Origin: a virus | Lineage: Duplodnaviria; Caudoviricetes | Virus record (IMG/VR): IMGVR_UViG_3300002220_000029 | Span: 11,285-75,284 of that record | Reading direction: 5' to 3' (one strand) | DNA: 64,000 nucleotides | Part shown: positions 11,018-60,467 of the stretch, one piece after another | Layout of the letters: each line of letters begins with the position of its first letter | Position numbering within the stretch: position 1 is the first letter of the stretch | Made by a program: the position numbers and the translations under genes | The notes under the pieces: model-generated | The model's input: the letters and a program-made list of their open reading frames with translations, nothing else | What the model was told of the DNA's origin: nothing | Database searches by the model: none

Positions 11018-11910
11018 AATTGATACCACCAATCACGATAACGGATGTTGAGTTTCATGATTCAACTATCACAGAGCCCAGTGTGGACGAATTAGCTGAC
11101 GTCAATTACAGAGGCGAGTGGAATGCTGGTGTGACTTATACTGTAAATGCTCTTGTTATTGTTGTGGCTGATCATAAAAGGTATATCTCATTACAAAATG
11201 GCAATGTTGGCTACACCCCAGGTGGAGCTGGCAACGAGGCATGGTGGTCAGATGATGGATATACGGATCGTTGGAAGGTATTTGATGCTGTTGTTGGTTC
11301 ACAGGCAACATTAACATCAGCCATCACATATGAATTAGATCCAGGACCAATTGACAGTGTTGCTCTTTTGAATATTGAGGCAGGAACAACTACAGTTACA
11401 ATGACAGATGTTGGTGGTGCAGGGGATCCTATTATTTGGACAGAAACAACAAAGGTTGATGGAATGCTCGTTTCTGATGTTGCCTATACAGATTTTCCTT
11501 TGACATATTTGACACCACACATTGTGATTGAATTGTCTATTCCAGCAACGGGTGATTCTGTTAAAATAGGAGAAATCATTGTTGGGCAGAAGGAATCTTT
11601 GGGCAACACAAAGTATATACCATCGGTTGGTATTACTGATTATAGCATCAAAGAGGTTGATGATTTTGGAAATTATACAGTGTTGGAAAGAGCATATTCG
11701 AAAAGGCTTTCATGCGCCACCAATATCTTAAATACACAGTTGGATGCTGTTTATAATGTTCTTGCCTCTTACCGAGCGCAGCCTGTGGTGTGGATTGGCC
11801 ATGAAGACTATGCCAGTATGATCGTTTATGGTTTTTATAAAGATTTTAGTATTGAGATTGCTTATTTGAAATATAGCGTATGCACATTGGAGATTGAGGG
11901 TCTTGTTTAA
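11014..11910 (+). CDS. tail tip protein (Dit-like) with small carbohydrate-binding-like insert
   Basis: Immediately after the tape measure (ATGA overlap); WNAGVTYTVNALV CBM5/12-like motif; paralogous to the next gene. Confidence 0.6.
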   Translation: MKLIPPITITDVEFHDSTITEPSVDELADVNYRGEWNAGVTYTVNALVIVVADHKRYISLQNGNVGYTPGGAGNEAWWSDDGYTDRWKVFDAVVGSQATLTSAITYELDPGPIDSVALLNIEAGTTTVTMTDVGGAGDPIIWTETTKVDGMLVSDVAYTDFPLTYLTPHIVIELSIPATGDSVKIGEIIVGQKESLGNTKYIPSVGITDYSIKEVDDFGNYTVLERAYSKRLSCATNILNTQLDAVYNVLASYRAQPVVWIGHEDYASMIVYGFYKDFSIEIAYLKYSVCTLEIEGLV

Positions 11911-32746: not shown

Positions 32747-34297
32747 ATGACAAAGATTCGCAGATATTCGGTGGATAGAGACATCGAAAAAAAGATCGTA
32801 ACAGGGATGATTGTTTCAGATGAATTTTGTACCAGTATCCAAAAGATGATCAAACCGCAGTATTTTCAAATTGATTATGCCAAGATTGTAGCGGGCTGGG
32901 TTCAAGAACATTTTAGACATTACAAAAAGGCTCCGAAAAAAGATATTCAGACCATGTATCGGGCGGAGAAGGTTTCTTTAGATGAGGCTACTGGCAATTT
33001 GATTGGCAAATTCCTGAACAACCTTTCAGAGGCCTATGAAGAAGGCCCTTCTTTTAACCATGAGTATTTGTTAGATCAAGCCAGAGATTATTTCCGAGAG
33101 CGGTCTCTTTCCATTTTATCGGAAAAGGTCCAAGCCGATCTTCTTAGGGGTAGAATTGATCAAGCAGAAAAGGAAGTGAAGAACTTCAGCCGAGTTGTAA
33201 AAGAGCTTGGCACCGGGTTTAATCCTTTTGAAAAATCACACATCCTCAAAATGTTCAGCGTAGAGAATGATTTTATTTTCAGATTGCCAGAAGAGTTTGG
33301 CGATTTAGCGGGAGATCTTGAAAGAGAATGGCTTGTTGCATTTATGGGGCCAATGAAAAGAGGCAAGAGTTGGATGTTACAAGAATTTGCTGTTCAAGCT
33401 TTATCGTGTCGGTTAAAGGTGGCGATTTTTAGTCTTGAGATGAGTGGGAGAGAAATAACAAAAAGAATATACAAGAGGCTGACCGGAATGAGTGAGAGAT
33501 CTGGTCAAATTTCTTGGGCTACTTTTGATTGTGAACGGAATCAAGATAATACTTGTAATCGTCCAGAAAGGACTTGTTCAAAAGGCGTTAAGGTTCCTGG
33601 AGAGATTATCGTGGAAGCAAAAGAAGTAAGAGGATACAAGCCATGTGTAATTTGTAGGCCGACTGAAAAAGGCGATCCGGGCAATGGCGAGTACCGGCAA
33701 GCGACCTGGAAGATTTGGAAGGACCAAAAGGAGTCATTAGATTCAAAAATAGTTCTTAAGAAGGCCCGTGATTTTGAAAGGCTTTATGGGAGTAATTTAC
33801 GAGTTAAATCATATCCATCATTTATTGCCAGTTTTGATGATATTATTTCCGATTTGGACGATTTTTGGTATACAGAATCATTTGCTCCCGATGTGATTTG
33901 TATTGACTCGGTTGATATTATGGCTCCGCAAGGGAGTGGAAATCTTTCTGAGAGAGGTCAAGCAGATTGGGCGTGGAAAAGAGCAAAAGGGTTGGCCGGA
34001 GAGAGACATTGTTTGGTGGCCACTGTCCTCCAGAGCAATCGTGCGTCTATTACACAAAAGAGTGTCCAGCAAGAAAATACGTCGGAAGATATCAGGAAGT
34101 TAGCACATTCAGATATTATGTTTGGTCTAAATCAGACTCCTGCTGAAAAGAAAAAAGGCGTAATGAGAGTGAGTGCTATTGTTCATCGCCATAAAGAATT
34201 CCAATTCGGTAAAGATGTAATGATTTTACAATCATTAGGCATTGGCCAGCCACTTCTTGAAACGCAATGGAGTGAGGAAAAAGAAAAGGACGAGTAA
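32747..34297 (+). CDS. dnaB: replicative helicase, DnaB/gp41-like
   Basis: Walker A GPMKRGKS, FSLEMS, ICIDSVD, VATVLQSNR, EDIRKLAHSD. Confidence 0.85.
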   Translation: MTKIRRYSVDRDIEKKIVTGMIVSDEFCTSIQKMIKPQYFQIDYAKIVAGWVQEHFRHYKKAPKKDIQTMYRAEKVSLDEATGNLIGKFLNNLSEAYEEGPSFNHEYLLDQARDYFRERSLSILSEKVQADLLRGRIDQAEKEVKNFSRVVKELGTGFNPFEKSHILKMFSVENDFIFRLPEEFGDLAGDLEREWLVAFMGPMKRGKSWMLQEFAVQALSCRLKVAIFSLEMSGREITKRIYKRLTGMSERSGQISWATFDCERNQDNTCNRPERTCSKGVKVPGEIIVEAKEVRGYKPCVICRPTEKGDPGNGEYRQATWKIWKDQKESLDSKIVLKKARDFERLYGSNLRVKSYPSFIASFDDIISDLDDFWYTESFAPDVICIDSVDIMAPQGSGNLSERGQADWAWKRAKGLAGERHCLVATVLQSNRASITQKSVQQENTSEDIRKLAHSDIMFGLNQTPAEKKKGVMRVSAIVHRHKEFQFGKDVMILQSLGIGQPLLETQWSEEKEKDE

Positions 34298-34322
34298 AAT
34301 AGTTGTAAAATAACTGGCTCAA

Positions 34323-34346
34323 ATTTTCAAGAGTGGTCTATAATAG
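34323..34346 (+). promoter_or_regulatory. phage promoter-like motif TCAA(A/G)A-N-TATAATAG
   Basis: TTTTCAAGAGTGGTCTATAATAG; one of 7 or more copies. Confidence 0.6.
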
Positions 34347-34398
34347 TTGTAAAGGTAGTTAAATTCTAACTGAGAATTAAAATGAAAGGAGAACGGAA

Positions 34399-34872
34399 AT
34401 GTTAGTGGATGTAAAAGAAATTAAATTTAAAGAGTTAGCAGCGGCAGTGAAGGTCTTAAATGATAGTGGATTGTTGGTTAAAACAATCGCCACAGTTGGC
34501 GTGACCAAAGAAGCTATCGTTAAGGCTTTTGTTGAAGGCGTTCAGTCGGTTCCCGATGACCAGGATGGAAATTGGACTGGTCCAGAAGAAGTGGCCGATT
34601 ATTACAGTAAGATTGTGATTCCTGATCCTGGAATCGAGACGGGCAAGAAAGAGAAAGTTCCAAAAGAAAAGAAAGAGAAAGTTCCAAAACAGAAAGGAGA
34701 GAAGAGTAAATCTTCGTTGGAAGTAATGAAAGAGCTTATTGCCAACAAAGCTTCCGATGCCGAGATTACCAAGGTGTTCACAGAGAAGTTGACCAAGAAG
34801 GATCCGAAACTTTCGGCAGATTTCATTGCCAAGAGAATCAAGATTTACAAAGGTTTAGCTGCAAAAGGGTAA
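34399..34872 (+). CDS. hypothetical Lys-rich protein
   Basis: AAGGAG RBS; KKEKVPK direct repeat. Confidence 0.6.
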   Translation: MLVDVKEIKFKELAAAVKVLNDSGLLVKTIATVGVTKEAIVKAFVEGVQSVPDDQDGNWTGPEEVADYYSKIVIPDPGIETGKKEKVPKEKKEKVPKQKGEKSKSSLEVMKELIANKASDAEITKVFTEKLTKKDPKLSADFIAKRIKIYKGLAAKG

Positions 34873-34894
34873 TCTTTCTCTTGCCCAGGCGCCC

Positions 34895-34924
34895 TTGGGA
34901 GGGATTATTGCCAATCCCTCCCAA
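34895..34924 (+). terminator. perfect 12-bp hairpin (terminator or RNA-processing/stability element)
   Basis: TTGGGAGGGATT-attgcc-AATCCCTCCCAA, weak U-tract; immediately upstream of queD. Confidence 0.55.
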
Positions 34925-34948
34925 TTGAATTTATAGAAAGGAGGCTTT

Positions 34949-35326
34949 ATGATTTCAATCTGTAGACGTTTCGAATTTCATGCTGCTCATTATCTTCCGA
35001 ATCATGAAGGAAAATGTAAAGATATTCATGGTCATTCATACATTCTGGAAGTAGAAGTGATAGGAATGATTCACACTGAAGGTCCCGCTACTGGGATGAT
35101 TATGGATTTTAGCAAGTTAAAGAAGATTGTTCATGATTCTGTTTTAGAGAAGATTGATCATAAGAATTTGAATGATATCTGGGATAATCCAACTGCCGAG
35201 AATATGGTCGTGGATATCTCCCGTTGGATTGAGCCACATCTGCCCGGATGGGTTACGGTTAATAGAATTCGTTTATGGGAAACCAGTAATTCTTACGCAG
35301 AATGGAGGATAGAATGGGGTCAGTGA
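34949..35326 (+). CDS. queD: 6-carboxytetrahydropterin synthase
   Basis: FEFHAAHYLP..EGKCKDIHGHSY, MIMDFS, DH..LN, PTAEN, WET. Confidence 0.92.
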   Translation: MISICRRFEFHAAHYLPNHEGKCKDIHGHSYILEVEVIGMIHTEGPATGMIMDFSKLKKIVHDSVLEKIDHKNLNDIWDNPTAENMVVDISRWIEPHLPGWVTVNRIRLWETSNSYAEWRIEWGQ

Positions 35327-35751
35327 AATCAAAAGAACAAATCGGGCCAAAGCTTTTTATCAATGGTATTGAATTGTCAGATCGTTGTCCTCATGAAATA
35401 GTAGAAATATTATTTTTGTGTATCAATTTTACATACTCATCTCTTGAGGCGATCCGAGCAAATCTGGAAGAATTGTTTGCTATGGCTGATGAATATTTAA
35501 TCGACAGAAGGAAGTGGTCTGCTGATAAAAAAGATCGAACCGACTGCTCCCGCCTCTTGAGACAGATCAATATTTGGAAAGTGAAATGGAAGAGATTACC
35601 TAAAGAAGGTTTGATGAGTGCTTACTGGGATTTTATTTTGAGGAATCAAAAGCTTGCGTTGTTACCTGGATTTGGTGTGGCTACCAATTTTGGTGATGTA
35701 TTGAGAGTCAATCCCGAAAAGACGTCGCTTCATTCTATGGTTAAAACCTAA
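35314..35751 (+). CDS. hypothetical protein within the deazaguanine cluster
   Basis: GGAGG RBS before ATG 35314; between queD and queE. Confidence 0.55.
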   Translation: MGSVKSKEQIGPKLFINGIELSDRCPHEIVEILFLCINFTYSSLEAIRANLEELFAMADEYLIDRRKWSADKKDRTDCSRLLRQINIWKVKWKRLPKEGLMSAYWDFILRNQKLALLPGFGVATNFGDVLRVNPEKTSLHSMVKT

Positions 35752-35764
35752 TAGGAGAAATGGT

Positions 35765-36421
35765 ATGAAAATTCATTCTATTTTCAAATCAATCAACGGT
35801 GAAATTTGTTCAGAGCACCAAGGCAGTCTAACAGCCTTTGTTCGTACTTTTGGCTGTAACAGTCGGTGTAGTTATTGCGACACACCATACAGTTACGCAG
35901 AAGGAGGAACTTATTCTGAGATGACTGTCAATCAAATTGTCCAAGAGGTTCTTGATTTGGCGGTTAAGAATGTTACCATAACAGGTGGAGAACCATTATT
36001 GCAAAAAGGAACCATCAATCTTATCAAACAGCTTAAATTGAAACGCCTTCATGTGTCTGTTGAAACAAATGGATCAAAGTTTATACCTAAGATAGAAGGC
36101 GTATCGTGGGTGGCAGATTATAAATTGCCATCTTCTGGTGCTGGACATTTGATGAGAATCAAGAATTACATCAATCTGTCCAGTCGTGATTATGTAAAGT
36201 TTGTCGTGTCAGATAGGCACGATTTTGATACAGCTCTCGAAATCATTCTCAGTATTTTTGTTGTGGTGAATTTCCTTGCAAGACCTAAATTTGCATTTTC
36301 TCCTGTATGGGGATCTCTGGCTCCAGAGACTCTTGCACAATGGATGATTGATAGTGAGTTTTTGTGTCGTCTTGGAGCTATTTATAATCTACAGATTCAT
36401 AAGATCTTGAAGGTATTATAA
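35765..36421 (+). CDS. queE: 7-carboxy-7-deazaguanine synthase (radical SAM)
   Basis: IFKSINGE, FVRTFGCNSRCSYCDTPY, TITGGEPLLQ, VETNGS, LQIHKIL. Confidence 0.92.
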   Translation: MKIHSIFKSINGEICSEHQGSLTAFVRTFGCNSRCSYCDTPYSYAEGGTYSEMTVNQIVQEVLDLAVKNVTITGGEPLLQKGTINLIKQLKLKRLHVSVETNGSKFIPKIEGVSWVADYKLPSSGAGHLMRIKNYINLSSRDYVKFVVSDRHDFDTALEIILSIFVVVNFLARPKFAFSPVWGSLAPETLAQWMIDSEFLCRLGAIYNLQIHKILKVL

Positions 36422-36439
36422 AATAATTGCCTCTGAATT

Positions 36440-36469
36440 TTAAATCCCTTCTATAATAGCTATAATAGA
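36440..36469 (+). promoter_or_regulatory. phage promoter-like motif (double TATAATAG)
   Basis: TTTAAATCCCTTCTATAATAGCTATAATAG upstream of folE. Confidence 0.5.
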
Positions 36470-36483
36470 GTAGGAGAAAATAA

Positions 36484-37068
36484 ATGTTGAAAAAATCTCG
36501 AGAAGTCGTCCAGGCAGAACAGAATGTTAGAGAGCTTTTAGCCTTCATTGGGGAAGATCCTGATCGCCCAGGGTTAGTAGATACCCCCAGTCGTGTGGTT
36601 AAAATGTATCAAGAATTTTTCTGCGGGTATGACCGTAAAAGGCGGCCCAAGATGACCATATTCAAAAATCAAGACGACGGGATCATTTATAATGATATGA
36701 TCTTAGATTCTGGTTTTTTCTTTTCTTGTTGTGAACATCATATGGCAATTTTTTTTGGTAGTTTTCATTGTGCATATATCCCTGATAAACATATCATTGG
36801 ATTGAGCAAGATAGACCGAATTGTTGATTATTATTCGGGTAGGCTTCAAGTGGCGGAGCGGTTGGTGCACCAAATTGTGGATGATTTACAGGAGGTATTA
36901 AATCCAAAAGGCCTTATTCTGGTTATGAATGCCCGTCATCTTTGTAAGGAAATGCGTGGAGTCAAAAAAATTAACAGTCCTGCAGAAGTGATTGCTGTCA
37001 GAGGCGCTTTTGCTACAAATCTTAATGGATGTAAAGACGAATTCATGTCCAGAATTCAAGGGAGGTAA
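36484..37068 (+). CDS. folE: GTP cyclohydrolase I
   Basis: GEDPDRPGLVDTPSRV, SCCEHH, GLSK..R, RLQVAERL, ARHLCKEMRG. Confidence 0.95.
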   Translation: MLKKSREVVQAEQNVRELLAFIGEDPDRPGLVDTPSRVVKMYQEFFCGYDRKRRPKMTIFKNQDDGIIYNDMILDSGFFFSCCEHHMAIFFGSFHCAYIPDKHIIGLSKIDRIVDYYSGRLQVAERLVHQIVDDLQEVLNPKGLILVMNARHLCKEMRGVKKINSPAEVIAVRGAFATNLNGCKDEFMSRIQGR

Positions 37069-37070
37069 CT

Positions 37071-37418
37071 ATGGACCAGATAGTAGCAAATTACAAAAGA
37101 TTCATCGTAATCAGGACCAGCTTTGAGGCGTTGCATCGTTGGCCCGAATGTCCTTTTGAGGACGTTTCTTTTCTAAGGGATGCTCATCGTCATATTTTTC
37201 ATGTGGAAGTTCAGGTGGAGACTTCAATGGATCGGCAGATTGAATTTATCAGATTCAAACGCAAGGTAGACAAGTATATCAAGAAGGAGTTCGCAGGGAA
37301 GAATCTGGGATCTCTTTCTTGCGAAGCGATTGCCGAAGTCCTGTGCTACCGCATGGATGCTAAACGGGTATCGGTTTTTGAGGACAATGAAAATGGGGCG
37401 ATTTATGAAAGGGCATGA
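37071..37418 (+). CDS. QueD-paralog T-fold protein with LxxxHRHxF motif (DpdL-like CDG decarboxylase candidate)
   Basis: HRWP...LRDAHRHIFHV...DRQIEF...SCE..A...V.V.EDNENGA. Confidence 0.65.
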   Translation: MDQIVANYKRFIVIRTSFEALHRWPECPFEDVSFLRDAHRHIFHVEVQVETSMDRQIEFIRFKRKVDKYIKKEFAGKNLGSLSCEAIAEVLCYRMDAKRVSVFEDNENGAIYERA

Positions 37419-38712
37419 TTTTGTAATAATTGATCCATCCAGTCCTGAATTCAACAGAGGTTCATTCTGCTATCTTCCCTTCATTTTATTTTCCGCACTA
37501 AAGGCTCAAGGAATAGATGTAATTCTGTTAGAAGATTTTTCTTGTGCTGATATCGATACAGTGCCAGAGGCCAACAATTATTTGGTAGGTCTTTGGTCAT
37601 ATCCTCAGATTGATGCTTGTTTGGTTTTGAATAGATTTTTGCCCAAGAAACCATTGTTCTTTGGCTATTATCCACTTATTCGCGACTTGAAATTAGGCGA
37701 ATATCTTGTAAGTAATATGCAGATTGAAATAGGGATAGTCAACTATGTCCAGTATTATGAAGGATTTGAAAGGATCTTGTTGTCTGATTGTGACATGCAT
37801 TTGACCAAATATGAAGGGACAGTTTATCCTTTATTTACTTCATATGGTTGCAACAATCGTTGCAAATTCTGTCCAGTATCTGTCAATTGTAACAGTCATC
37901 GCGTAGTAGTGCCTCTTGAAAGCGTGCGAATGGTTTTGGATTTTTGTGGTAGTAAAGGTTATAAAAATATTCATTTCACTGATGAGGATTTCTTTTTTGA
38001 TATTGATCGGGCCGAGCAGATTTTGAGATATACTCAAGGTAAAGATTTTAATTATATTGCTCTGGGAAGTGTTTATACTGTATCTAAATTCATTGAGAAA
38101 TTTGGCACTGATATTTTTGACGAGACTGGAATGCGGCTGATTGAGATCGGGCTGGAGACGGCTGATTCTGTATTAAATAAAAAGATGGGCAAGGGAGGAC
38201 GAGATAAATATTCTGCTTTAGCAGAGCAGACTAAAGGCAAGGTCGATATTTTTTGGCTTACCATGACTTTCTTTCCTGGGGAAACCATTGCTACATTACG
38301 TTCGACAGGATTATTTTTGGAAAAGTATGGGTTTCAATTAGAGGAATTGTATGGTAGGATTCAGACCAATTCCACGTCAGGCGGGTTAGGCCAGTTTTAT
38401 CAATCTTACATTGGGACACCAGAAAATGAAAATATTGAAGACAAAGGCATAGTTTTGTCTGAGAGGCCAGTGAGACTGATCCCCAGTTTTGTACCGTATA
38501 CTTTTTTGGGATGTCGAATTACGAAATGGCGAATGATCAGGGAAGATGAAAAGAAGTGGTTTGAGTTGTATAGGATTCCTGAAAAGCTGGTCCATGTAAA
38601 AATTTCTTTGAATACCATTGCACAAACTATCGAAATGTTAAAAGGCATATATAATGTAAATGACATTGTAACTTTTTTAGCTATCTCAGCCCGTTTAGGA
38701 GTTATTGAATGA
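37405..38712 (+). CDS. radical SAM enzyme with N-terminal Rossmann/B12-binding-like domain
   Basis: TSYGCNNRCKFC (CxxxCxxC), HFTDEDFF, IGLETAD, FFPGET. Confidence 0.8.
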   Translation: MKGHDFVIIDPSSPEFNRGSFCYLPFILFSALKAQGIDVILLEDFSCADIDTVPEANNYLVGLWSYPQIDACLVLNRFLPKKPLFFGYYPLIRDLKLGEYLVSNMQIEIGIVNYVQYYEGFERILLSDCDMHLTKYEGTVYPLFTSYGCNNRCKFCPVSVNCNSHRVVVPLESVRMVLDFCGSKGYKNIHFTDEDFFFDIDRAEQILRYTQGKDFNYIALGSVYTVSKFIEKFGTDIFDETGMRLIEIGLETADSVLNKKMGKGGRDKYSALAEQTKGKVDIFWLTMTFFPGETIATLRSTGLFLEKYGFQLEELYGRIQTNSTSGGLGQFYQSYIGTPENENIEDKGIVLSERPVRLIPSFVPYTFLGCRITKWRMIREDEKKWFELYRIPEKLVHVKISLNTIAQTIEMLKGIYNVNDIVTFLAISARLGVIE

Positions 38713-39710
38713 GAATAATTAATGTGCCAATTGAAAGTTTGGAAGAACGTTATTCTGCTCAATGGAATAAATGGTTCCCAGAAGCCTTTACCGATATGAG
38801 AATCAATTTTGTTAACATCTATCCCGATACGCTCTCTGACCATATTAAGGATGGTTCTTTCTTAGATGTTTGTGGCACCAATTATTTTAAGGCTGGCCAA
38901 TTAAAAATATTGACCAAAATGTTATTCCAAGACGAGATTGAGAAGGATGATGTTATCTTTTTTCATGATCTTTGGTGTCCAGGCATAGAAATGCTTCAAT
39001 ACATCAGACAAGGAAAGAAATTGAATTTTAAGATCTGTGGCATTCTCCATGCAGGGACGTATGATCCTTACGATTTCCTGGCCAAACAAGGCATGGCTTC
39101 TTGGGGTGGTCCTCTTGAAGAAGTTTGGTTTAGTTTTATTGATCAAATCTATGTGGCAACAGAATTTCATAAAAATCTTATTTGGCATAAAAGAAAAATT
39201 GATTTTGATAAGATCAAAGTGACAGGATTACCAATTTACAATAATCAATATCCTGATATGATGAGGAAAGAAAATATTGTTGTATTCCCTCACAGGCTTG
39301 ATTCGGAGAAGAATCCACAGTTGTTTGATCGATTGTCAATCGATGCAACTACAGAAGGTTGGCAATTTATTAAAACCAAAGAAGTGTGTAAGACAAAAAA
39401 AGATTACTTTAAACTTTTGAACCGGGCTAAAATAGCAGTGTCATTCGCTGATCAGGAAACATGGGGCATTGCTCAGCAAGAGGCGTTATTTGCTAAATGT
39501 TTTCCTGTAGTGCCTAATCGGCTCAGTTATTCAGAAATGTATAGAAGGAGTTTTAGATATTCTTCTTTTGAAGAGGCTGTTCATTTGGTCAAGAAATTGA
39601 TGGAGCCTAACAGCGAAGATTTTGATCAACTATCTTATAATAGAGATGAGTTGCTCAGACGTGGCGATTTAGCTATACTAAACATTGTAAATGAAATGGA
39701 GAAATTATGA
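38709..39710 (+). CDS. GT-B glycosyltransferase, GTDC1/QTMAN-like
   Basis: FPHRLDSEKNP...KKDYFKLL.RA...S.A.QETWGIAQQEA...CFPVVPNRLSYSE. Confidence 0.8.
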   Translation: MRIINVPIESLEERYSAQWNKWFPEAFTDMRINFVNIYPDTLSDHIKDGSFLDVCGTNYFKAGQLKILTKMLFQDEIEKDDVIFFHDLWCPGIEMLQYIRQGKKLNFKICGILHAGTYDPYDFLAKQGMASWGGPLEEVWFSFIDQIYVATEFHKNLIWHKRKIDFDKIKVTGLPIYNNQYPDMMRKENIVVFPHRLDSEKNPQLFDRLSIDATTEGWQFIKTKEVCKTKKDYFKLLNRAKIAVSFADQETWGIAQQEALFAKCFPVVPNRLSYSEMYRRSFRYSSFEEAVHLVKKLMEPNSEDFDQLSYNRDELLRRGDLAILNIVNEMEKL

Positions 39711-40702
39711 ATCTGATGTTGGACAGTGGTTCGCCAAGCCTTTACAACACCTTGGTTAGAAAAAAGAAAACCAAAGGTATCATGGGGGCTTTTCTAAAAG
39801 ATAGAGTAGAATTTGATAATGAAGGAAAAAGGGTTAGTGCTGATACATTCGAATTTTTAGAAACAGAGAAGTATTTGATATACAAAGAGGAATACATTGC
39901 CTTCCTTTTGAAAAATCAGCAGTATTTTGATGTCTATGTAAATCTCGATATCATTAACAATGCACAGGCGACTTGGGATAATCAACAAGAGATGGAGTCT
40001 TATGGGCTGAAGCCTATTCCAGTATTTCATTTTGGGTCTGACATAAAGTGGTTGCATATGTATCTTGAGAAGGGCTACAAGTATATTGCTATGGGAGGCT
40101 TCATTCCAAACCCCGTAGCGGTGTTACAGCCAATTTTAGATGATCTGTGGGCGAATATTTTATGCGATAAAGAAGGGATTCCAAAGGTAAAGGTCCACGG
40201 TTTTGCTGTTACGTCGGCCAGGCTTGTTGCTCGTTATCCGTGGTGGAGTGTTGATAGTACCAGTTGGGCCAAGATTGGAATTTATGGAGCCATTACTGTT
40301 CCAAGGCATAAAAATGGTCAGTGGGTTTATGATGGTACTCCTCATGTTGTTTTTACATCCAATAAGAGCAAGGCTCAGAATGAGATTAATGGTAAACATA
40401 TCAATACTGTCACTTCTGTTGAGAGAGAATATATTTTGGCATTTCTGAAAGAAAATGGTGTTGCCTTAGGTAAGTCTTCTTTCAAAACAGAGAGTAAGTT
40501 TAGCGGGTATGTGCCAAAGGCAAATGAGCGATGGGTTGATTTGAAAACCAAAGACGAGATTGAGATTATTGAAGAGCAAGGTGTGTGCAACCAGTTTGAG
40601 TTAAGAAATAAGATCAATCTTTTATTTTTTATTAACCTTCAAAAAAATCTTCCGGAGTGGCCTTGGGCTTTCAAACGGACAGTGAAAGGATTTGGACTAT
40701 GA
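39707..40702 (+). CDS. dpdA: DpdA-like deazaguanine-DNA transglycosylase (TGT fold)
   Basis: MLDSGS, YVNLDII, IPVFH, IAMGG, VHGFAVT, SVDSTSW; context with folE/queD/queE. Confidence 0.78.
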   Translation: MNLMLDSGSPSLYNTLVRKKKTKGIMGAFLKDRVEFDNEGKRVSADTFEFLETEKYLIYKEEYIAFLLKNQQYFDVYVNLDIINNAQATWDNQQEMESYGLKPIPVFHFGSDIKWLHMYLEKGYKYIAMGGFIPNPVAVLQPILDDLWANILCDKEGIPKVKVHGFAVTSARLVARYPWWSVDSTSWAKIGIYGAITVPRHKNGQWVYDGTPHVVFTSNKSKAQNEINGKHINTVTSVEREYILAFLKENGVALGKSSFKTESKFSGYVPKANERWVDLKTKDEIEIIEEQGVCNQFELRNKINLLFFINLQKNLPEWPWAFKRTVKGFGL

Positions 40703-40905
40703 AACTTTATATTGCTGGAGAGAATCCTCATGGCGTTAACCCAAATACGCCAAGAGAGAGATGTGATAATGACATTCACGATTTTATTGAGAGCCAGGGA
40801 ATAGAAATGAATCGGCTTGTTTCTTTCTTTTACAAAGGATCGGTCCTGAGAAATATTAAATTGAAAAAAGAATTGGAGGATGAGCGTGAAAATACAAAAA
40901 GCTGA
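40699..40905 (+). CDS. small hypothetical protein (MKLYIAG...RLVSFFY)
   Basis: ATGA overlap with the dpdA-like stop. Confidence 0.5.
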   Translation: MKLYIAGENPHGVNPNTPRERCDNDIHDFIESQGIEMNRLVSFFYKGSVLRNIKLKKELEDERENTKS

Positions 40906-41908
40906 GTTACAGAGGATTTTGGAAAATCTCCGGCCTGGACTTGCCAAAAGGGATATTGTTAGTAAACTATCTGATTTTACTTTTTTAGGAGACAGGATTT
41001 GCGCCTTTAATGATCAAATATCCATTAGTCATCCTTTTGAATCGGAGTTTGAATGTTCGGTTGATGGCCAAAATTTTTATTCAGTTATTGTGAATATTCC
41101 TGAAGGCAACATTGATTTGACATTGGCAGAATCAAAGTTAATTATCAAAGGAGAGAAGGCAAAGGCATCTCTTGTAACTTCTGAAGGCGGTGGTGTTCTT
41201 GGTAAGATTAAAGTGCCCAGAATAAAATCGAAGAAGTGGAAGGATTTACCAGAGATGTTTACGAAAGGGGTTAAACTTTGTTCATTCAGTGTTTCCACTG
41301 ATTTGACAAGGCCGGCTTTAACATGTATTGCTGTTCAGGGCGATAAGATTTTTTCTGCTGACAATCTCAGAATTAGTAAATTTTTACTGTCCACCCCAGT
41401 TGGCGATGATTTTTTGATTACTGGAGTATCAGCGGTCATCTTGGCCAAATATCCTGTGACTCAGTATTTAAAAGATGATAGTTGGGTTCATTTTAAGACT
41501 GAAGGAGACATCATTTTTTCTTGTCGAGTTATTGTTGATGTTTTTCCTGATGTGAGCGAGTATTTCAAGGTGGATGGCGTGTCTTTTGCCTTGCCAGCCG
41601 AGTTAAAGAATGTTGTTGATTCTGTTTCGGTCGTCGCTGACGAAGAATTTGTCGTTGATCAAATTATTTCGGTGTTCCTTTCTAAAAAAGATAAAACTAT
41701 CGTTTGTTCTGGGCAAGGTTCTCTCGGATCTTTTGAAAGGTCGTGTTCTTTAGGTGTTCGTATCCAGAGCGATGTAGCATTTAATATTAATCCGTCTTTC
41801 TTTTCTGAGGTTTTATACAGCGGGTCCGAGATGACTTTGGGAGATAACCATGCGTTGTTTACGGGCGATTCTTTCGAGCATGTCATGTGTTTACCTTGTA
41901 AATCATAG
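40880..41908 (+). CDS. dnaN: DNA polymerase sliding clamp (beta-like)
   Basis: FSVSTDLTRPALT..I....AD..R, VFPDVSEYF, AFNINP.FF; 342 aa. Confidence 0.8.
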   Translation: MSVKIQKAELQRILENLRPGLAKRDIVSKLSDFTFLGDRICAFNDQISISHPFESEFECSVDGQNFYSVIVNIPEGNIDLTLAESKLIIKGEKAKASLVTSEGGGVLGKIKVPRIKSKKWKDLPEMFTKGVKLCSFSVSTDLTRPALTCIAVQGDKIFSADNLRISKFLLSTPVGDDFLITGVSAVILAKYPVTQYLKDDSWVHFKTEGDIIFSCRVIVDVFPDVSEYFKVDGVSFALPAELKNVVDSVSVVADEEFVVDQIISVFLSKKDKTIVCSGQGSLGSFERSCSLGVRIQSDVAFNINPSFFSEVLYSGSEMTLGDNHALFTGDSFEHVMCLPCKS

Positions 41909-41914
41909 GCTAAA

Positions 41915-41936
41915 AAATCAAAAGCCTTTATAATAA
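41915..41936 (+). promoter_or_regulatory. phage promoter-like motif
   Basis: AATCAAAAGCCTTTATAATAA upstream of the polymerase. Confidence 0.55.
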
Positions 41937-41950
41937 GTAGAGGAATTCAA

Positions 41951-44900
41951 ATGGAATTTTGTCATCTCCACGTTCATACAGAAAATTCGCTTTTAGATGG
42001 ATATGGTAGCGCTAAACAGTATCTGTCTAAAGCTAAGGAGTTGGGGTTTCAATATCTTGCTTGTACTGATCATGGGAATCAAGATGGGTTAATTAAGTTT
42101 CAAAGAGAGGCAGAGAAACAAGGCATTAAATCTATCTTAGGCTGTGAATTATATATTGTGCCAGATGCCTCTATCAAAGTGCCTAAAGAATTTAGATTTC
42201 ATGTAACCGTGTTAGTTAAAGATAATGATGGTTGGCATAACCTTTGTAAAATATTGACAGAAGCGAATCTGCATGGTTTTTACTATAAGCCAAGGGCAGA
42301 TTTTGATATGTTGAAAAAATATAGTAAAGGATTAGTTTTTTTGAGTGGCTGTACCGCCACTGTTTTGACATCTAAGATTGGTCAGGATTTCTTTTGGGAG
42401 TTAAATGTCCTGTGTCCTGGCGATTGTTACTTAGAAGTTATGCCTCATCTGTTTGATGATCAGATGGAAGTCAATAAGATTTGTTGTGAATATGGGTTGC
42501 CATTGGTAGCAACAAATGATTGTCATTATGTCAATGAAGATGATGGTATGGTGCATGAAGTGTTGTTGGCTATTCAAACTAAAGCTAAGTGGTCTGATAG
42601 TTCGCGTTTTCGTTTTGAAACCAGAGGTTTGTTTCTCCGTTCATCTCAAGAGATGAAAGAAGCTTTTAAACTTCAAGATGTTTTAACTAAATCTCAATAT
42701 CTTTTGGCAATGAGGAACACAGTTGAGATTGCCGAGAAGTGTTCTGATTTTAAGATCCAAAAACAAGATATCTTTTTACCTTCCATATTACAGAAAGGCG
42801 AGTCTGAAAATCTTTTTCTTCGGACACTTTGCGAGAAAGGATACAGAAAAATATTTGGCGAATTGATCGAGAATGATTCTATTTATTATGATCGTTTCCT
42901 TGAAGAGTTTAACATGATCAAAAAGAAAAAGTTCATTCGATATTTTCTGGTCGTTTGGGAGCTTACTGAATGGTGTAAAAAGAACAATATTATGATTGGA
43001 CCAGGCCGGGGTTCTGTGGGCGGCAGTCTTATTGCTTATTTGATTGGTATTACTTCTGTTGATCCAATCAAATATAATTTATTATTTTCTCGTTTCATTG
43101 CAGAAGATCGAATTGATTATCCGGATATTGATTTGGACTTTGAGGATGTTAAAAGACCACTGATCAGAGGTCATCTTGAAGAGATGTATGGTAAAAATAA
43201 TATTGCCAGTGTGTCTACTTTTATGGATATGAAGGGAAGAGCGGCAATACGTGATGTTGCAAGGGTTTTTGAGATACCGTATGGCGAAGTAGATGAGTTT
43301 GCTAAATTTATTGAAGATGAAAATGGTGATGGCAGTTCTATTGAAACAGCAGCAAGTGATCATTGGTTTTCTCAAAAGTATCCTGAGGCTGTAAAAATTG
43401 CCATTAGATTAGAAGGACAGACGAGAGGTGTTGGCCAGCATGCCGCTGCTCTTATTGTGTCTGCTGATGATCTTACGCAAGGAGCCAGGTGTAATCTTTC
43501 TGTTCGATCAAATCAAGAGGTTGTTAACTGGGATAAAGATGATGCCGAATATGTAGGCCTTATGAAATTAGATGTTTTAGGTCTTAATACATTGTCTATT
43601 TTAAATGAAACCAAAAGGCTGGTAAAGGAGAATCATAACAAGGAAATTGTTTTTGAGAAAATCACATTAGATAATCCTCAAGTTTTTGATATGCTGTCAA
43701 AAGGACAAACAGTAGGTGTTTTTCAATTTAATACTTGGCCAACAACTAAGCTTTGTAAAGAGGTTGGTGTTGATAGTTTTGGTTTAATGAGCGATGTCGT
43801 CGCTTTAGTTAGGCCTGGTCCTGCCGACAGTGGGATGACTGCCGATTTTATTAAAAGGAAGCATGGAAAGAAGTGGCTAAAGAAACACAGGATTTATGAA
43901 CAGATCACACGAGATACTTTTGGTATCATTATTTATCAAGAACAAGTAATGCAAGTTATCAGCGAAGTGGCCGGATTGCCATATTCGACGGCTGATAAGA
44001 TTAGGAAGATTATTGCAAAGAAAAGAGATGTCAAAGAATTTGAAAAATATAGAGAAATGTTTGTTGATGGCTGTGAAAAAAAAGAGACCTTATCTGAAAA
44101 GGAAGCCTTGGAATTCTGGGAAGCTCTTGAGAAACATGCAAGTTACAGTTTTAATCGTTGTTTGGCGGGAGATACAGTTGTTAACCGAGCATCAGCTGGA
44201 AGATTTTGCGGGTTAGATGTTACATTGAAAGATTTATATGAAAGTCGGTATTCGAAAACGAGTACAGGCGATAAACTTCGCTGTAGAGGATTGCATCTTC
44301 TTCAATGGAAAGAGTTAGATTCTCGTATTCATACAGGGAAAATGACAAATATCTATGATAGTGGAGTTCAAGAAGTTTGGTTAATTTGTTTAGAATCGGG
44401 GAATTCAATCAAGGCAACAGACCAACATCGTTTTTTGGCCAAGAGAAGAGAAAAAAATTTATATGTCAAAGTATGTGATTTGAAAATTGGTGATTTGTTA
44501 GCTATTAAAGGCCCCAGAGTAAAGGAAATAATCAAAGCTGCTCTTGATAGTAGACCTTTGAAAACAACATATCGTGGTAGAGGGTTTCAAAAAGGAGAGG
44601 ATAATGTAGGATACATTGATGGAAGAGGAAAATTTCTAAAACCGGCAAGGATAAAGGTTTCTTTAAGAGCGCGCGGCAGATGTGAGGAATGCGGGAAGGA
44701 AATAGAAAAAGAATGCGAATCATGTCATCAGAAAGTAAAAATAGGAAGACCCGAATTTGCTCATGTCAAACTTTTAGATGAACTGAATTATGACCATGAA
44801 TTATACCATTCTCTTGAAAATATAATGTATCTTTGTAATTCATGCCACAAGAAAAAAGATTATGAAAAAGGAGAAAGGAAGGTAAGACATTCGGTGGGGA

Positions 44901-46180
44901 GAATAATAGAATATTCTCCTATCAAATCTATCAAATACGTTGGAAAAGAACAGACATATGATGTTGAAATGGAAGATCCACATAATTTTATTGCCAATGG
45001 TTTTGTAAGCCATAATTCTCACAGCGTCGAGTATTCTATGATAGCATATTGGTGTGCATTTTGTAAGTTGTATTTTCCAGCTGAGTTTTTGTGCGCTAAT
45101 TTATCATATGGATCAGATGGCAAAAAAGAAGAATTGGTCAAAGAGGCAAGGCGGTTAGGCTTGAATATTGTTCTGCCAAAGATTGGTGTTTCTGATGCTC
45201 ATAAATGGGTTGTTAAAGATGGCAAGTTATATGTTCCTTTCATTGAGATAAAAGGTGTAGGCGAAAAAGTGGCTTTAGAACTTTTGAAGTATCGTCCTCC
45301 GGAGCCACAAGAAGTAGTATTACATCAACAAAGTAAGCCAAGGCAACGAGGTTTTTTTGATTTAAAGCAGGAAGAACCTAAAACAGTGTTAAAAGAGGTA
45401 AAAGAAAAAAAGATAGATAAATTATTAAAGGCCATTGGAGCGATTGGCAATAATCCAGAAGAAGATTTGTCAAAGTATTTTTCTTTTGATATGAGTGTTG
45501 ATAAACGGGACGAATTTCCTAATCTACGCCAATGTCTTGGCTTTAGTTTTCCTCCTAAGGATCTTGAAGCCATGTTGAGTTTAGAATTGCCTGTAGGCTA
45601 TATTCGAGGAAAGATTCATACTTCTAAATTCCAAAATCCAGAGCTTTTGTATTGCCAGGATTGTGATCTTGTAAAACAGTGTAAAAGACCAGTATTACCT
45701 TCGTCGGGAAGGTACAATCTTGCTATTGTTGGCGAGGCTCCTGGGCCGAATGAGGATAAACAAGGAGAAGGATTTGTTGGACGCGCTGGCGATTTGGTTT
45801 GGAAAGAGTTAGGCCAATATGGTCTTATACGCAGGTTTTTTCATGTAACGAATTGTGTTAAATGTTATCCTGGCGAGATTAAGACTCCGGCTGTAAGACA
45901 TTTAACAGCTTGTAAGAAATGGCTTGATGAAGAGATCAAACAAGCTGAGATAAAATTATCATTGGTATTTGGAAATACGGGGTTAAAATATTTTAAGGGA
46001 GAGGATGGCGGTATTACCAAATACAGTGGCAAGGCAGAATGGCTTGAGAATTATGGCATGTGGGCTTGCTGGTGTGTTCATCCTGCTTCGGTATTGAGAG
46101 ATCCTAAAAATAAGGATGATTTTCAATCAGGGATTGCAAACTTTGTGGAAAAAATAAATGTTCTGGGAGGATTGAAATAA
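41951..46180 (+). CDS. dnaE: DNA polymerase III alpha (DnaE) with intein and C-terminal family-4 uracil-DNA glycosylase domain
   Basis: PHP HLHVHTE..TDHG; GPGRGSVGGS; YPDIDLDF; KLDVLGL; FNR|intein|SHS; C-terminal VGEAPG.NED..GEGFVG.AG, TNCVKC, HPA. Confidence 0.93.
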   Translation: MEFCHLHVHTENSLLDGYGSAKQYLSKAKELGFQYLACTDHGNQDGLIKFQREAEKQGIKSILGCELYIVPDASIKVPKEFRFHVTVLVKDNDGWHNLCKILTEANLHGFYYKPRADFDMLKKYSKGLVFLSGCTATVLTSKIGQDFFWELNVLCPGDCYLEVMPHLFDDQMEVNKICCEYGLPLVATNDCHYVNEDDGMVHEVLLAIQTKAKWSDSSRFRFETRGLFLRSSQEMKEAFKLQDVLTKSQYLLAMRNTVEIAEKCSDFKIQKQDIFLPSILQKGESENLFLRTLCEKGYRKIFGELIENDSIYYDRFLEEFNMIKKKKFIRYFLVVWELTEWCKKNNIMIGPGRGSVGGSLIAYLIGITSVDPIKYNLLFSRFIAEDRIDYPDIDLDFEDVKRPLIRGHLEEMYGKNNIASVSTFMDMKGRAAIRDVARVFEIPYGEVDEFAKFIEDENGDGSSIETAASDHWFSQKYPEAVKIAIRLEGQTRGVGQHAAALIVSADDLTQGARCNLSVRSNQEVVNWDKDDAEYVGLMKLDVLGLNTLSILNETKRLVKENHNKEIVFEKITLDNPQVFDMLSKGQTVGVFQFNTWPTTKLCKEVGVDSFGLMSDVVALVRPGPADSGMTADFIKRKHGKKWLKKHRIYEQITRDTFGIIIYQEQVMQVISEVAGLPYSTADKIRKIIAKKRDVKEFEKYREMFVDGCEKKETLSEKEALEFWEALEKHASYSFNRCLAGDTVVNRASAGRFCGLDVTLKDLYESRYSKTSTGDKLRCRGLHLLQWKELDSRIHTGKMTNIYDSGVQEVWLICLESGNSIKATDQHRFLAKRREKNLYVKVCDLKIGDLLAIKGPRVKEIIKAALDSRPLKTTYRGRGFQKGEDNVGYIDGRGKFLKPARIKVSLRARGRCEECGKEIEKECESCHQKVKIGRPEFAHVKLLDELNYDHELYHSLENIMYLCNSCHKKKDYEKGERKVRHSVGRIIEYSPIKSIKYVGKEQTYDVEMEDPHNFIANGFVSHNSHSVEYSMIAYWCAFCKLYFPAEFLCANLSYGSDGKKEELVKEARRLGLNIVLPKIGVSDAHKWVVKDGKLYVPFIEIKGVGEKVALELLKYRPPEPQEVVLHQQSKPRQRGFFDLKQEEPKTVLKEVKEKKIDKLLKAIGAIGNNPEEDLSKYFSFDMSVDKRDEFPNLRQCLGFSFPPKDLEAMLSLELPVGYIRGKIHTSKFQNPELLYCQDCDLVKQCKRPVLPSSGRYNLAIVGEAPGPNEDKQGEGFVGRAGDLVWKELGQYGLIRRFFHVTNCVKCYPGEIKTPAVRHLTACKKWLDEEIKQAEIKLSLVFGNTGLKYFKGEDGGITKYSGKAEWLENYGMWACWCVHPASVLRDPKNKDDFQSGIANFVEKINVLGGLK
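44159..45016 (+). mobile_element. intein (286 aa) with HNH-type endonuclease
   Basis: Starts CLAGDT, block B KATDQHRFL, ends TYDVEMEDPHNFIANGFVSHN with +1 Ser; interrupts FN(K/R)SH; internal CEEC...AHV...N..YLCNSCH. Confidence 0.92.
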
Positions 46181-59463: not shown

Positions 59464-59670
59464 ATGGCAAAGCGTAGTTATGAAGACAGACCGTTGTCGT
59501 TTGGTAAGTTTAGAGGAAAATTGATCTGCGACATACCTTCTGGCTATTTGACATGGTTGTCGGAGCAGGATTTCTTTTCCAGAGACTTTCCTGCTTTGTT
59601 TGATCTGGTTGAACAGGAGTTGCTTTATAGGGACAGATGGGTAGAACATTTTTATGAGGAGAGAAAATGA
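59464..59670 (+). CDS. DUF3820-like small protein
   Basis: LSFGKFRGKLICDIPSGYLTWL. Confidence 0.65.
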   Translation: MAKRSYEDRPLSFGKFRGKLICDIPSGYLTWLSEQDFFSRDFPALFDLVEQELLYRDRWVEHFYEERK

Positions 59671-60467
59671 GACTACGCTTTGGTATGATTGGTAACGGTA
59701 CAATTGCAGGCAGGCACAAGGAGGCAATCAAATCAATCAATGGTGTGTTGAGATGGGTATCTGATCCAGCATTGGTTACTGACGAGGGTAAAATTCCTTA
59801 TTGCTCTTTTGACCAGAATGCATATATGAGTAATCTGCCACCTTCTGACTGGATGTTTGATTTGGTGGATTATATTGTCGTTTGCTCGCCTACTTACTTG
59901 CACAGACACCATGTAAAGGAGGCTCTCAAACATAACAAACAGGTGATTTGCGAGAAGCCATTGTGCTTGCCTTGGGAGCCCTTGATTGATGATGATCGTA
60001 TAAACATCGTCCTGCAATTACGGTATATTGAGAACTTGCCAAAGAAGGCTGATTTGGTCAAGGCTGTGATGGTCAGGGATGAGGAGTTCTTCAAGTCGTG
60101 GAAGGGCGATCCAAGAAAGGCTGGAGGCAACATCTACGAGTTCTTTATTCACTACATTGACCTTGCCATCCTTCTTGGAGCAAACTTTGAGGGTGCTGTT
60201 TCTCCCAAAGGAGCACAGGAAAGGAAGATCATTTATGATAAGGAATACGGCCTGGTTCAGGATGAGGCAGAGATTGACATTATGAAGATCGACATGCAAC
60301 ATTTGTACAATAGGATGTATGAGGACATCTGCTGCAGTCAGACTGGCGGTGTAAAGCCACGAGACATATTTTACCTTTCATGGATCCTCAATCGCAACAG
60401 TGAGCTTTATGGATACAGGAAGGGCGGGTTTGATAGGCCAATAAAAATATCAAAAGAACTCCTATAA
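59667..60467 (+). CDS. Gfo/Idh/MocA oxidoreductase, WbpB/WlbA-like NDP-sugar dehydrogenase
   Basis: GMIGNGTIAGRH, CSPTYLH, CEKPL, LQLRY, SWKGDPRK. Confidence 0.8.
   Translation: MRLRFGMIGNGTIAGRHKEAIKSINGVLRWVSDPALVTDEGKIPYCSFDQNAYMSNLPPSDWMFDLVDYIVVCSPTYLHRHHVKEALKHNKQVICEKPLCLPWEPLIDDDRINIVLQLRYIENLPKKADLVKAVMVRDEEFFKSWKGDPRKAGGNIYEFFIHYIDLAILLGANFEGAVSPKGAQERKIIYDKEYGLVQDEAEIDIMKIDMQHLYNRMYEDICCSQTGGVKPRDIFYLSWILNRNSELYGYRKGGFDRPIKISKELL

Follow-up and report, generated by a model that had tools for sequence, protein, structure and literature searches.

An orphan radical SAM enzyme in a viral 7-deazaguanine DNA-modification module and its possible role in tailoring a glycosylated base

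The window analysed here is a 64,000-nucleotide stretch of a Caudoviricetes genome (IMG/VR record IMGVR_UViG_3300002220_000029, positions 11,285 to 75,284), and it carries a gene, ending at position 38712, for a radical S-adenosylmethionine (SAM) enzyme, called rSAM below, that is a fixed part of a virus-specific 7-deazaguanine DNA-modification module without QueC. What is new is the occurrence of this orphan enzyme family together with a glycosyltransferase (GT) in a known type of deazaguanine system. By analogy with AprD4, a radical SAM dehydratase of apramycin biosynthesis, rSAM may catalyse a cobalamin-independent radical tailoring step on a glycosylated 7-deazaguanine, a reading to which we assign a probability of roughly 40%.

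Results and Discussion

Conservation of the module

Fifty loci from IMG/VR and five others were fetched and searched with the window's proteins, yielding 40 distinct loci, and linkage was counted in the 21 distinct loci whose rSAM gene is flanked on each side by 4 kb or more, where partners were scored within 6 kb. The GT, the DNA guanine transglycosylase DpdA, FolE and QueE accompany rSAM in all 21 loci (21/21 each), and DpdL and QueD do so in 20 (20/21 each). The order FolE-DpdL-rSAM-GT-DpdA is the commonest (25 of the 40 loci), and at least four others occur, with rSAM identity falling to ~30%; because at least five gene orders keep the same partners, it is the module rather than a single order that is conserved. 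A role unrelated to base modification (e.g., as a nucleotide-pool or host-takeover enzyme within the replication module) is very unlikely. The cluster does sit amid replication genes (helicase, primase, clamp, Pol III alpha), and all loci may stem from related phage lineages, in which case shared ancestry adds to the linkage, but the linkage with GT, DpdL and DpdA outlasts at least five rearrangements across that range of identity, and every rSAM family member on a contig with enough flanking sequence lay in such a cluster.

The genes of the region, all on the plus strand, are as follows.

34949..35326, plus strand: QueD, 6-carboxytetrahydropterin synthase (PF01242 7e-33; TIGR03367 3.3e-27, above cut-off)
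35765..36421, plus strand: QueE, 7-carboxy-7-deazaguanine synthase, the cluster's first radical SAM enzyme (TIGR03963 4.5e-48; PF04055 1.8e-16)
36484..37068, plus strand: FolE, GTP cyclohydrolase I (PF01227 1e-54; NF006826 6.8e-56)
37071..37418, plus strand: DpdL-type QueD paralog with the 6-pyruvoyltetrahydropterin synthase (PTPS) fold, a proposed decarboxylase of 7-carboxy-7-deazaguanine (CDG) (LRDAHRHIF; phrog_17812 2.2e-19)
37393/37405..38712, plus strand: rSAM, orphan radical SAM enzyme of predicted class-B architecture (439/435 amino acids)
38709..39710, plus strand: GT4-type glycosyltransferase with the GT-B fold, 333 amino acids (AlphaFold2 model, Foldseek, Glycos_transf_1)
39707..40702, plus strand: DpdA, DNA guanine transglycosylase (phrog_887 1.8e-40)
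40880-41908, plus strand: sliding clamp
41951-46180, plus strand: Pol III alpha (homology to an annotated gene of the related locus L001)

The presence of DpdA with FolE, QueD and QueE predicts a 7-deazaguanine product, and with the DpdL-type paralog also nearby, the placement of rSAM inside a 7-deazaguanine (dpd) cluster, first made from the sequence alone, is confirmed. In the second PTPS-fold gene, LRDAHRHIF fits LxxxHRHxF, the signature that defines DpdL, an enzyme proposed to decarboxylate CDG (Cui, Hutinet et al., NAR 2023, PMC10516641), and the protein is 35.5% identical to the DpdL region of phage phiST. Neither the 75-kb virus record, which is 86% complete, nor any of four related complete genomes was found to contain QueC; since the DpdL signature is present and QueC was not found, the pathway is, as judged from its genes, a QueC-less, DpdL-type one like that of phiST. 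The window DpdA is closest to the 9g/Seuratvirus type, with 35-39% identity to annotated phage DpdA/tgt genes. DpdL and rSAM overlap by 14-26 nt, depending on the rSAM start, and the rSAM/GT and GT/DpdA junctions are ATGA overlaps.

The rSAM gene and its motifs

The rSAM reading frame is a real one that encodes 435 amino acids when read from the ATG at 37405, and in this numbering it carries DCDMH at 128, CNNRCKFC at 149, FTDEDF at 191, GLET at 249, FPGET at 290 and GGLGQF at 326. The sequence-only reading had reported an open reading frame (ORF) at 37405-38712 with CNNRCKFC, FTDEDF, GLET and FPGET; the motifs and the stop are borne out, and the start probably lies further upstream. An upstream in-frame ATG at 37393 is preceded by GAGGA at a distance of 8 nt, and the database protein identical to the window rSAM (P0001) has the 439 amino acids read from there, so that 37393 is probably the true start and 37405 merely the next in-frame ATG. 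Pfam finds Radical_SAM (PF04055) alone; the match spans residues 145-301, its 54.5 bits exceed the cut-off of 29.5 bits, and the core has the form of a partial TIM barrel. The three cysteines of the CX3CX2C motif (C149, C153 and C156) are invariant across 41 sequences, and no other cysteine is. Further conserved residues are H190/D193/E194, E247/G249/E251 and P291/T294, and those invariant besides the cysteines are Q68, G87, H132, H190, E247, G249, E251, L285, G327-Q330, R357, P360 and Y389. The gene is thus predicted to encode a working radical SAM enzyme, in which C149/C153/C156 would hold one [4Fe-4S] cluster and SAM would be bound by the customary motifs. It is also a second radical SAM enzyme distinct from QueE, as originally read: QueE is a separate gene, and QueE models give no match to the rSAM protein.

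Fold, placement and the question of cobalamin

An AlphaFold2 (AF2) model of rSAM built on the 41 sequences (pLDDT 95.8, pTM 0.93) has TsrM, AprD4, MgmA, CysS, TokK, MiaB and OxsB as its top Foldseek matches, with TsrM, CysS, OxsB and TokK matching over the full length. AprD4, a cobalamin-free enzyme, is the family's best structural match and also ranks first in a profile search of Protein Data Bank (PDB) sequences (3e-12). The three N-domain cysteines for an auxiliary cluster and the TRAM domain of the MiaB/RimO family are absent from rSAM. Curated families match varying numbers of the 41 members (PhpK 29, HpnJ 24, Sden_1168 19, AprD4 12, slr0320 12, ladderane 11, ArsL 9), and because all of these scores fall far below the cut-offs, sequence comparison assigns rSAM to the B12-binding-like radical SAM group as an orphan branch; the group includes the non-cobalamin-binding AprD4 and ArsL (PMC12931638).

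The alpha/beta domain that had been noticed ahead of the cluster motif is present in the model, at ~120 amino acids, as a Rossmann-like domain N-terminal to the core, with beta-alpha repeats at residues 4-94. Its class-B origin can still be detected: hhalign aligns it with the B12-domain region of relatives at a probability of 68% (E 5e-5, 87 columns). When the profile of the N-domain was run against PDB sequences, it matched at chance level only (E>=0.35). This architecture invites the explanation that rSAM is a true cobalamin-dependent class-B methyltransferase whose target carbon lies in the deazaguanine (C7 or C8 of 7-deazaguanine, DG) or in an attached sugar; methylation at C7 had also been suggested from the sequence alone. 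Both kinds of target have parallels: TsrM methylates the indole C2, to which the pyrrole carbons C7 and C8 of DG are chemically similar, and GenK methylates a sugar carbon in gentamicin. The N-domain itself argues against cobalamin in several ways. None of 32 N-domains (0/32) matches PF02310 even at E<=10, whereas the out-of-family relatives P0184, P0193 and P0194, taken as a positive control, match it at 1e-13 to 1e-19. The cluster motif begins at residue 149, compared with 181-265 in 35 class-B-like relatives. A class 1 cobalamin domain has a five-stranded Rossmann fold, a C-terminal beta-hairpin and a GG motif (Avalos and Drennan, PMC13331322). The AF2 model, which is a prediction only, shows the N-domain with four strands and a single additional bridge residue, and without the hairpin. 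GG aligns to G87-Y88 of FFGY.P, where the tyrosine is more than 90% conserved. Given the lack of a PF02310 match, the shorter N-domain, the four strands without a hairpin and the change from GG to GY, cobalamin binding has probably been lost in the rSAM family, and with a cobalamin-free enzyme as the top structural match, the methyltransferase is rather unlikely.

Of the B12-binding-like architecture claimed from the sequence alone, then, the arrangement of a Rossmann-like N-domain before a radical SAM core holds, and the implied dependence on cobalamin is not supported. Nor does the enzyme point to a host that is anaerobic or rich in B12, since QueE, encoded by the same phage, belongs to the radical SAM class too, and a Tara Oceans source label is attached to one member of the rSAM family.

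The partner glycosyltransferase

The AF2 model of the GT (pLDDT 94) has a GT-B fold, and its best Foldseek matches are the retaining GT4 enzymes MshA and BshA (TM-score 0.71-0.73). Glycos_transf_1 is found in 30/30 family members and Glyco_transf_4 in 18/30. The conserved residues E250-x7-E258, R196 and K201 agree with the motif set of GT4 enzymes. A specific likeness to QTMAN/GTDC1 was considered and is not borne out, as Pfam gave no QTMAN-specific N-domain in the 30 members; membership of GT4 is supported.

Homologues of the GT (26-34% identity) occur beside or near DpdL in cultured phages, namely ACP17, the PA5oct group, Phosso, X1/BUDD and BCSR5, none of which has an rSAM homologue at E<=1e-5. 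In ACP17 (L056:7971-9383) and PA5oct (L057:8001-9524) the homologue, annotated as hypothetical, lies directly beside DpdL, and the DpdL-GT pair is a conserved unit. A protein of 424 amino acids in phrog_10773 adjoins the GT in ACP17 (L056:6700-7974) and is also encoded on an rSAM-bearing contig (L004:2562-3836), the available part of which has no phrog_887-type DpdA; it may be an alternative DpdA type of the ACP17 and L004 phages. PA5oct DNA resists enzymes with G in the recognition site, and its modified G has not yet been identified (PMC12191111). In phiST, DpdL is present and no GT was matched. Three tiers are therefore suggested by gene content: DpdL alone (giving 2'-deoxy-7-deazaguanine, dDG), DpdL with GT (the modified G just mentioned), and DpdL with GT and rSAM (the clade of the window).

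This distribution also bears on the alternative that rSAM acts on the base before glycosylation, either as the real or an auxiliary decarboxylase from CDG to DG or by building a carbon side chain on C7 that is glycosylated later. The side-chain variant is modelled on addition of the 5'-deoxyadenosyl radical, as in MqnE or HpnH; as for the other variant, decarboxylation of an aromatic acid is not known for any radical SAM enzyme. A base step would suit the position of the rSAM gene directly after DpdL, with overlapping codons, and the fact that DG offers a GT no hydroxyl, which means that an enzyme has to provide the acceptor. It would also suit the finding that DpdL and DpdA of phiST and ACP17 gave no dDG in Escherichia coli; according to the authors, other, as yet unknown enzymes may be needed for dDG (PMC10516641). 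However, phiST-type phages make dDG without rSAM, and ACP17- and PA5oct-type phages have DpdL and GT without it; since these phages manage without the enzyme, neither DG formation nor the GT acceptor needs rSAM, and a role before glycosylation is improbable.

Proposed role of rSAM

Because the GT occurs without rSAM in the cultured phages and groups named above, its acceptor is independent of rSAM, and rSAM therefore most likely acts at or after glycosylation. In the scheme proposed here, FolE, QueD and QueE would make CDG, after which DpdL, rSAM, the GT4 glycosyltransferase and DpdA would act. Hydrogen abstraction by the 5'-deoxyadenosyl radical would take place, without cobalamin, at the sugar that the GT4 enzyme adds to DG or CDG, or at the sugar-base adduct, and rSAM would then tailor the sugar by dehydration/deoxygenation, epimerisation or C-C rearrangement. 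DpdA would insert or carry the resulting DNA base, which would be more complex than dDG. A precedent exists in the apramycin pathway, where a GT4-type enzyme puts the sugar substrate of AprD4 on 2-deoxystreptamine. Hydrogen abstraction from a sugar and dehydration of a 1,2-diol have been described for AprD4 (PMC5461906). An earlier suggestion from the sequence alone, that the enzyme might modify the sugar, comes nearest to this tailoring role; the sugar meant here is the one added by the GT4 enzyme, a link that had not been drawn.

Several observations weigh against the tailoring role. Identity to AprD4 is only 13-14%. The AprD4 model NF033070 scores the window rSAM at 17.1 bits against a cut-off of 500, although 12 of the 41 members match it at E<=1e-3 (best 3.7e-11). 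The nearest curated families by sequence are mostly cobalamin-dependent methylases, and the conserved S64, Q68 and G87 follow strands 3 and 4, the edge that holds cobalamin in TsrM, TokK and OxsB; this edge of the N-domain may now line the substrate pocket. An AprD3-like NADPH-dependent reductase is missing from the module, and no conserved one was found. The acceptor of the GT is not evident, DG having no hydroxyl, and the predicted pI of ~6 for both rSAM and GT does not distinguish a free base from a DNA substrate. The fuller prediction, in which rSAM and the GT4 enzyme jointly give phage DNA a 7-deazaguanine that bears a sugar and is tailored by radical chemistry, is more doubtful than the tailoring step by itself.

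Elsewhere in the window, after the terminase genes, a Gfo/Idh/MocA NAD-binding oxidoreductase is encoded at 59667-60467 (PF01408 1.5e-12). The gene is present in the nearest relative and absent from three other complete rSAM-bearing genomes, and was rejected as an obligatory AprD3-like partner on account of its presence in only 1/4 complete relatives.

Distribution of the family and other features of the region

A word-indexed search returned 230 rSAM homologues, nearly all of them unnamed and metagenomic, the closest with 72-74% identity, which places the gene far beyond chance. An exhaustive search gave 62 clusters (50% identity) at E<=1e-30, followed by a sharp fall-off, and the atlas clusters neighbouring rSAM are 100% Viruses. 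At E<=1e-5, tblastn recovered no rSAM homologue from 50,697 GenBank phage records, and megablast of 34000-42000 against the same records gave no match, so that there is no cultured representative. Among 185,579 prokaryote species (one genome each), the sole rSAM match was on a 46-kb contig in a metagenome-assembled genome of Candidatus Paceibacterota (L058, JBAZFF010000003.1); because its length and match coordinates agree with those of the IMG/VR viral contig L036, this is probably a binned phage contig. The rSAM family is virus-only, with ~62 clusters at 50% identity. The label 'Patescibacteria group bacterium' on the homologue P0006 may have the same binning cause.

The rSAM homologue of L036 (5105-7324) contains an intein of ~270 amino acids with an HNH-like segment, located between CVNK and CKFC inside the CX3CX2C motif, with the second cluster cysteine as the +1 residue. 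A split of the form CX3|CX2C fits the insertion of inteins at functionally essential sites. No fusions of rSAM to partner domains were seen, as the longer members carry PF04055 or an intein only, and PHROGs has no family for rSAM or the GT.

The ORFs at 34399-34872 and 35302-35751 gave no Pfam, NCBIfam, PHROG or PDB match. The first of these (157 amino acids) is kept in 11 related loci at 29-69% identity, usually between QueE and FolE, and may be a further component of the module. The Pol III alpha-type polymerase downstream of the clamp has 1409 amino acids, and its L001 homologue combines PHP, DNA_pol3_alpha and uracil-DNA glycosylase (UDG, PF03167) domains in one protein; a uracil-DNA-glycosylase-like domain is thus fused to the replicase in a phage with a predicted modified G.

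Significance and comparison with known systems

Phage DNA is known to contain eight derivatives of 7-deazaguanine, and none of the known pathways to them has a second radical SAM enzyme or a glycosyltransferase. Searches of the literature on deazaguanine DNA pathways turned up no radical SAM enzyme beyond QueE and no GT; the 2023 survey of phage deazaguanines mentions radical SAM once and glycosyl never (PMC10516641). The module described here is compact (seven genes), strictly conserved and virus-only, and its product would be none of the known bases if both extra enzymes are active. If the proposal is true, that product would be, as far as we know, the first glycosylated purine analogue in DNA, and would parallel there the mannosyl- and galactosyl-queuosine found in animal tRNA. 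The module ties together the unsolved DpdL step, the modified G of the PA5oct group (which is being studied for use in therapy) and an orphan B12-like radical SAM branch. It is small enough to be synthesised and expressed, which makes the prediction of a new base directly testable, and a new bulky G modification would bear on restriction evasion, sequencing artefacts and enzymatic tools.

AprD4 (PDB 6FD2), a 1,2-diol dehydratase, is the only radical SAM dehydratase that we know of. The N-terminal region of rSAM is ~55 residues shorter than that of AprD4, and the contexts differ, with AprD4 serving aminoglycoside synthesis and rSAM encoded among genes for phage DNA-base modification. The class-B enzymes (TsrM, TokK, CysS, OxsB, MgmA/QCMT and PhpK) share with rSAM the domain order, the FxDExF, GxE(S/T) and PGET motifs and a remote homology of the N-domain, whereas rSAM differs in having no PF02310 signal, a shorter four-stranded N-domain (in the model) and GY in place of GG, and in reaching no curated cut-off. 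Phage phiST carries dDG (PMC10516641), and its pathway (FolE, QueD, QueE, DpdL, DpdA3; PMC10516641) has in common with the window the lack of QueC, a DpdL with LxxxHRHxF and a DpdA; it is without rSAM and GT4, and the window DpdA is nearer to the 9g/Seuratvirus type than to that of phiST. The phages ACP17 (Acidovorax), the PA5oct group (Pseudomonas), Phosso (Sinorhizobium), X1/BUDD (Xanthomonas) and BCSR5 (Burkholderia) share DpdL, GT, QueE, FolE and QueD with the window. These cultured phages have DpdL and GT4 without rSAM, whereas the clade of the window adds one step, which, if the proposed role is right, would place its base a single chemical step further than the modified G found in phages of the PA5oct and ACP17 types.
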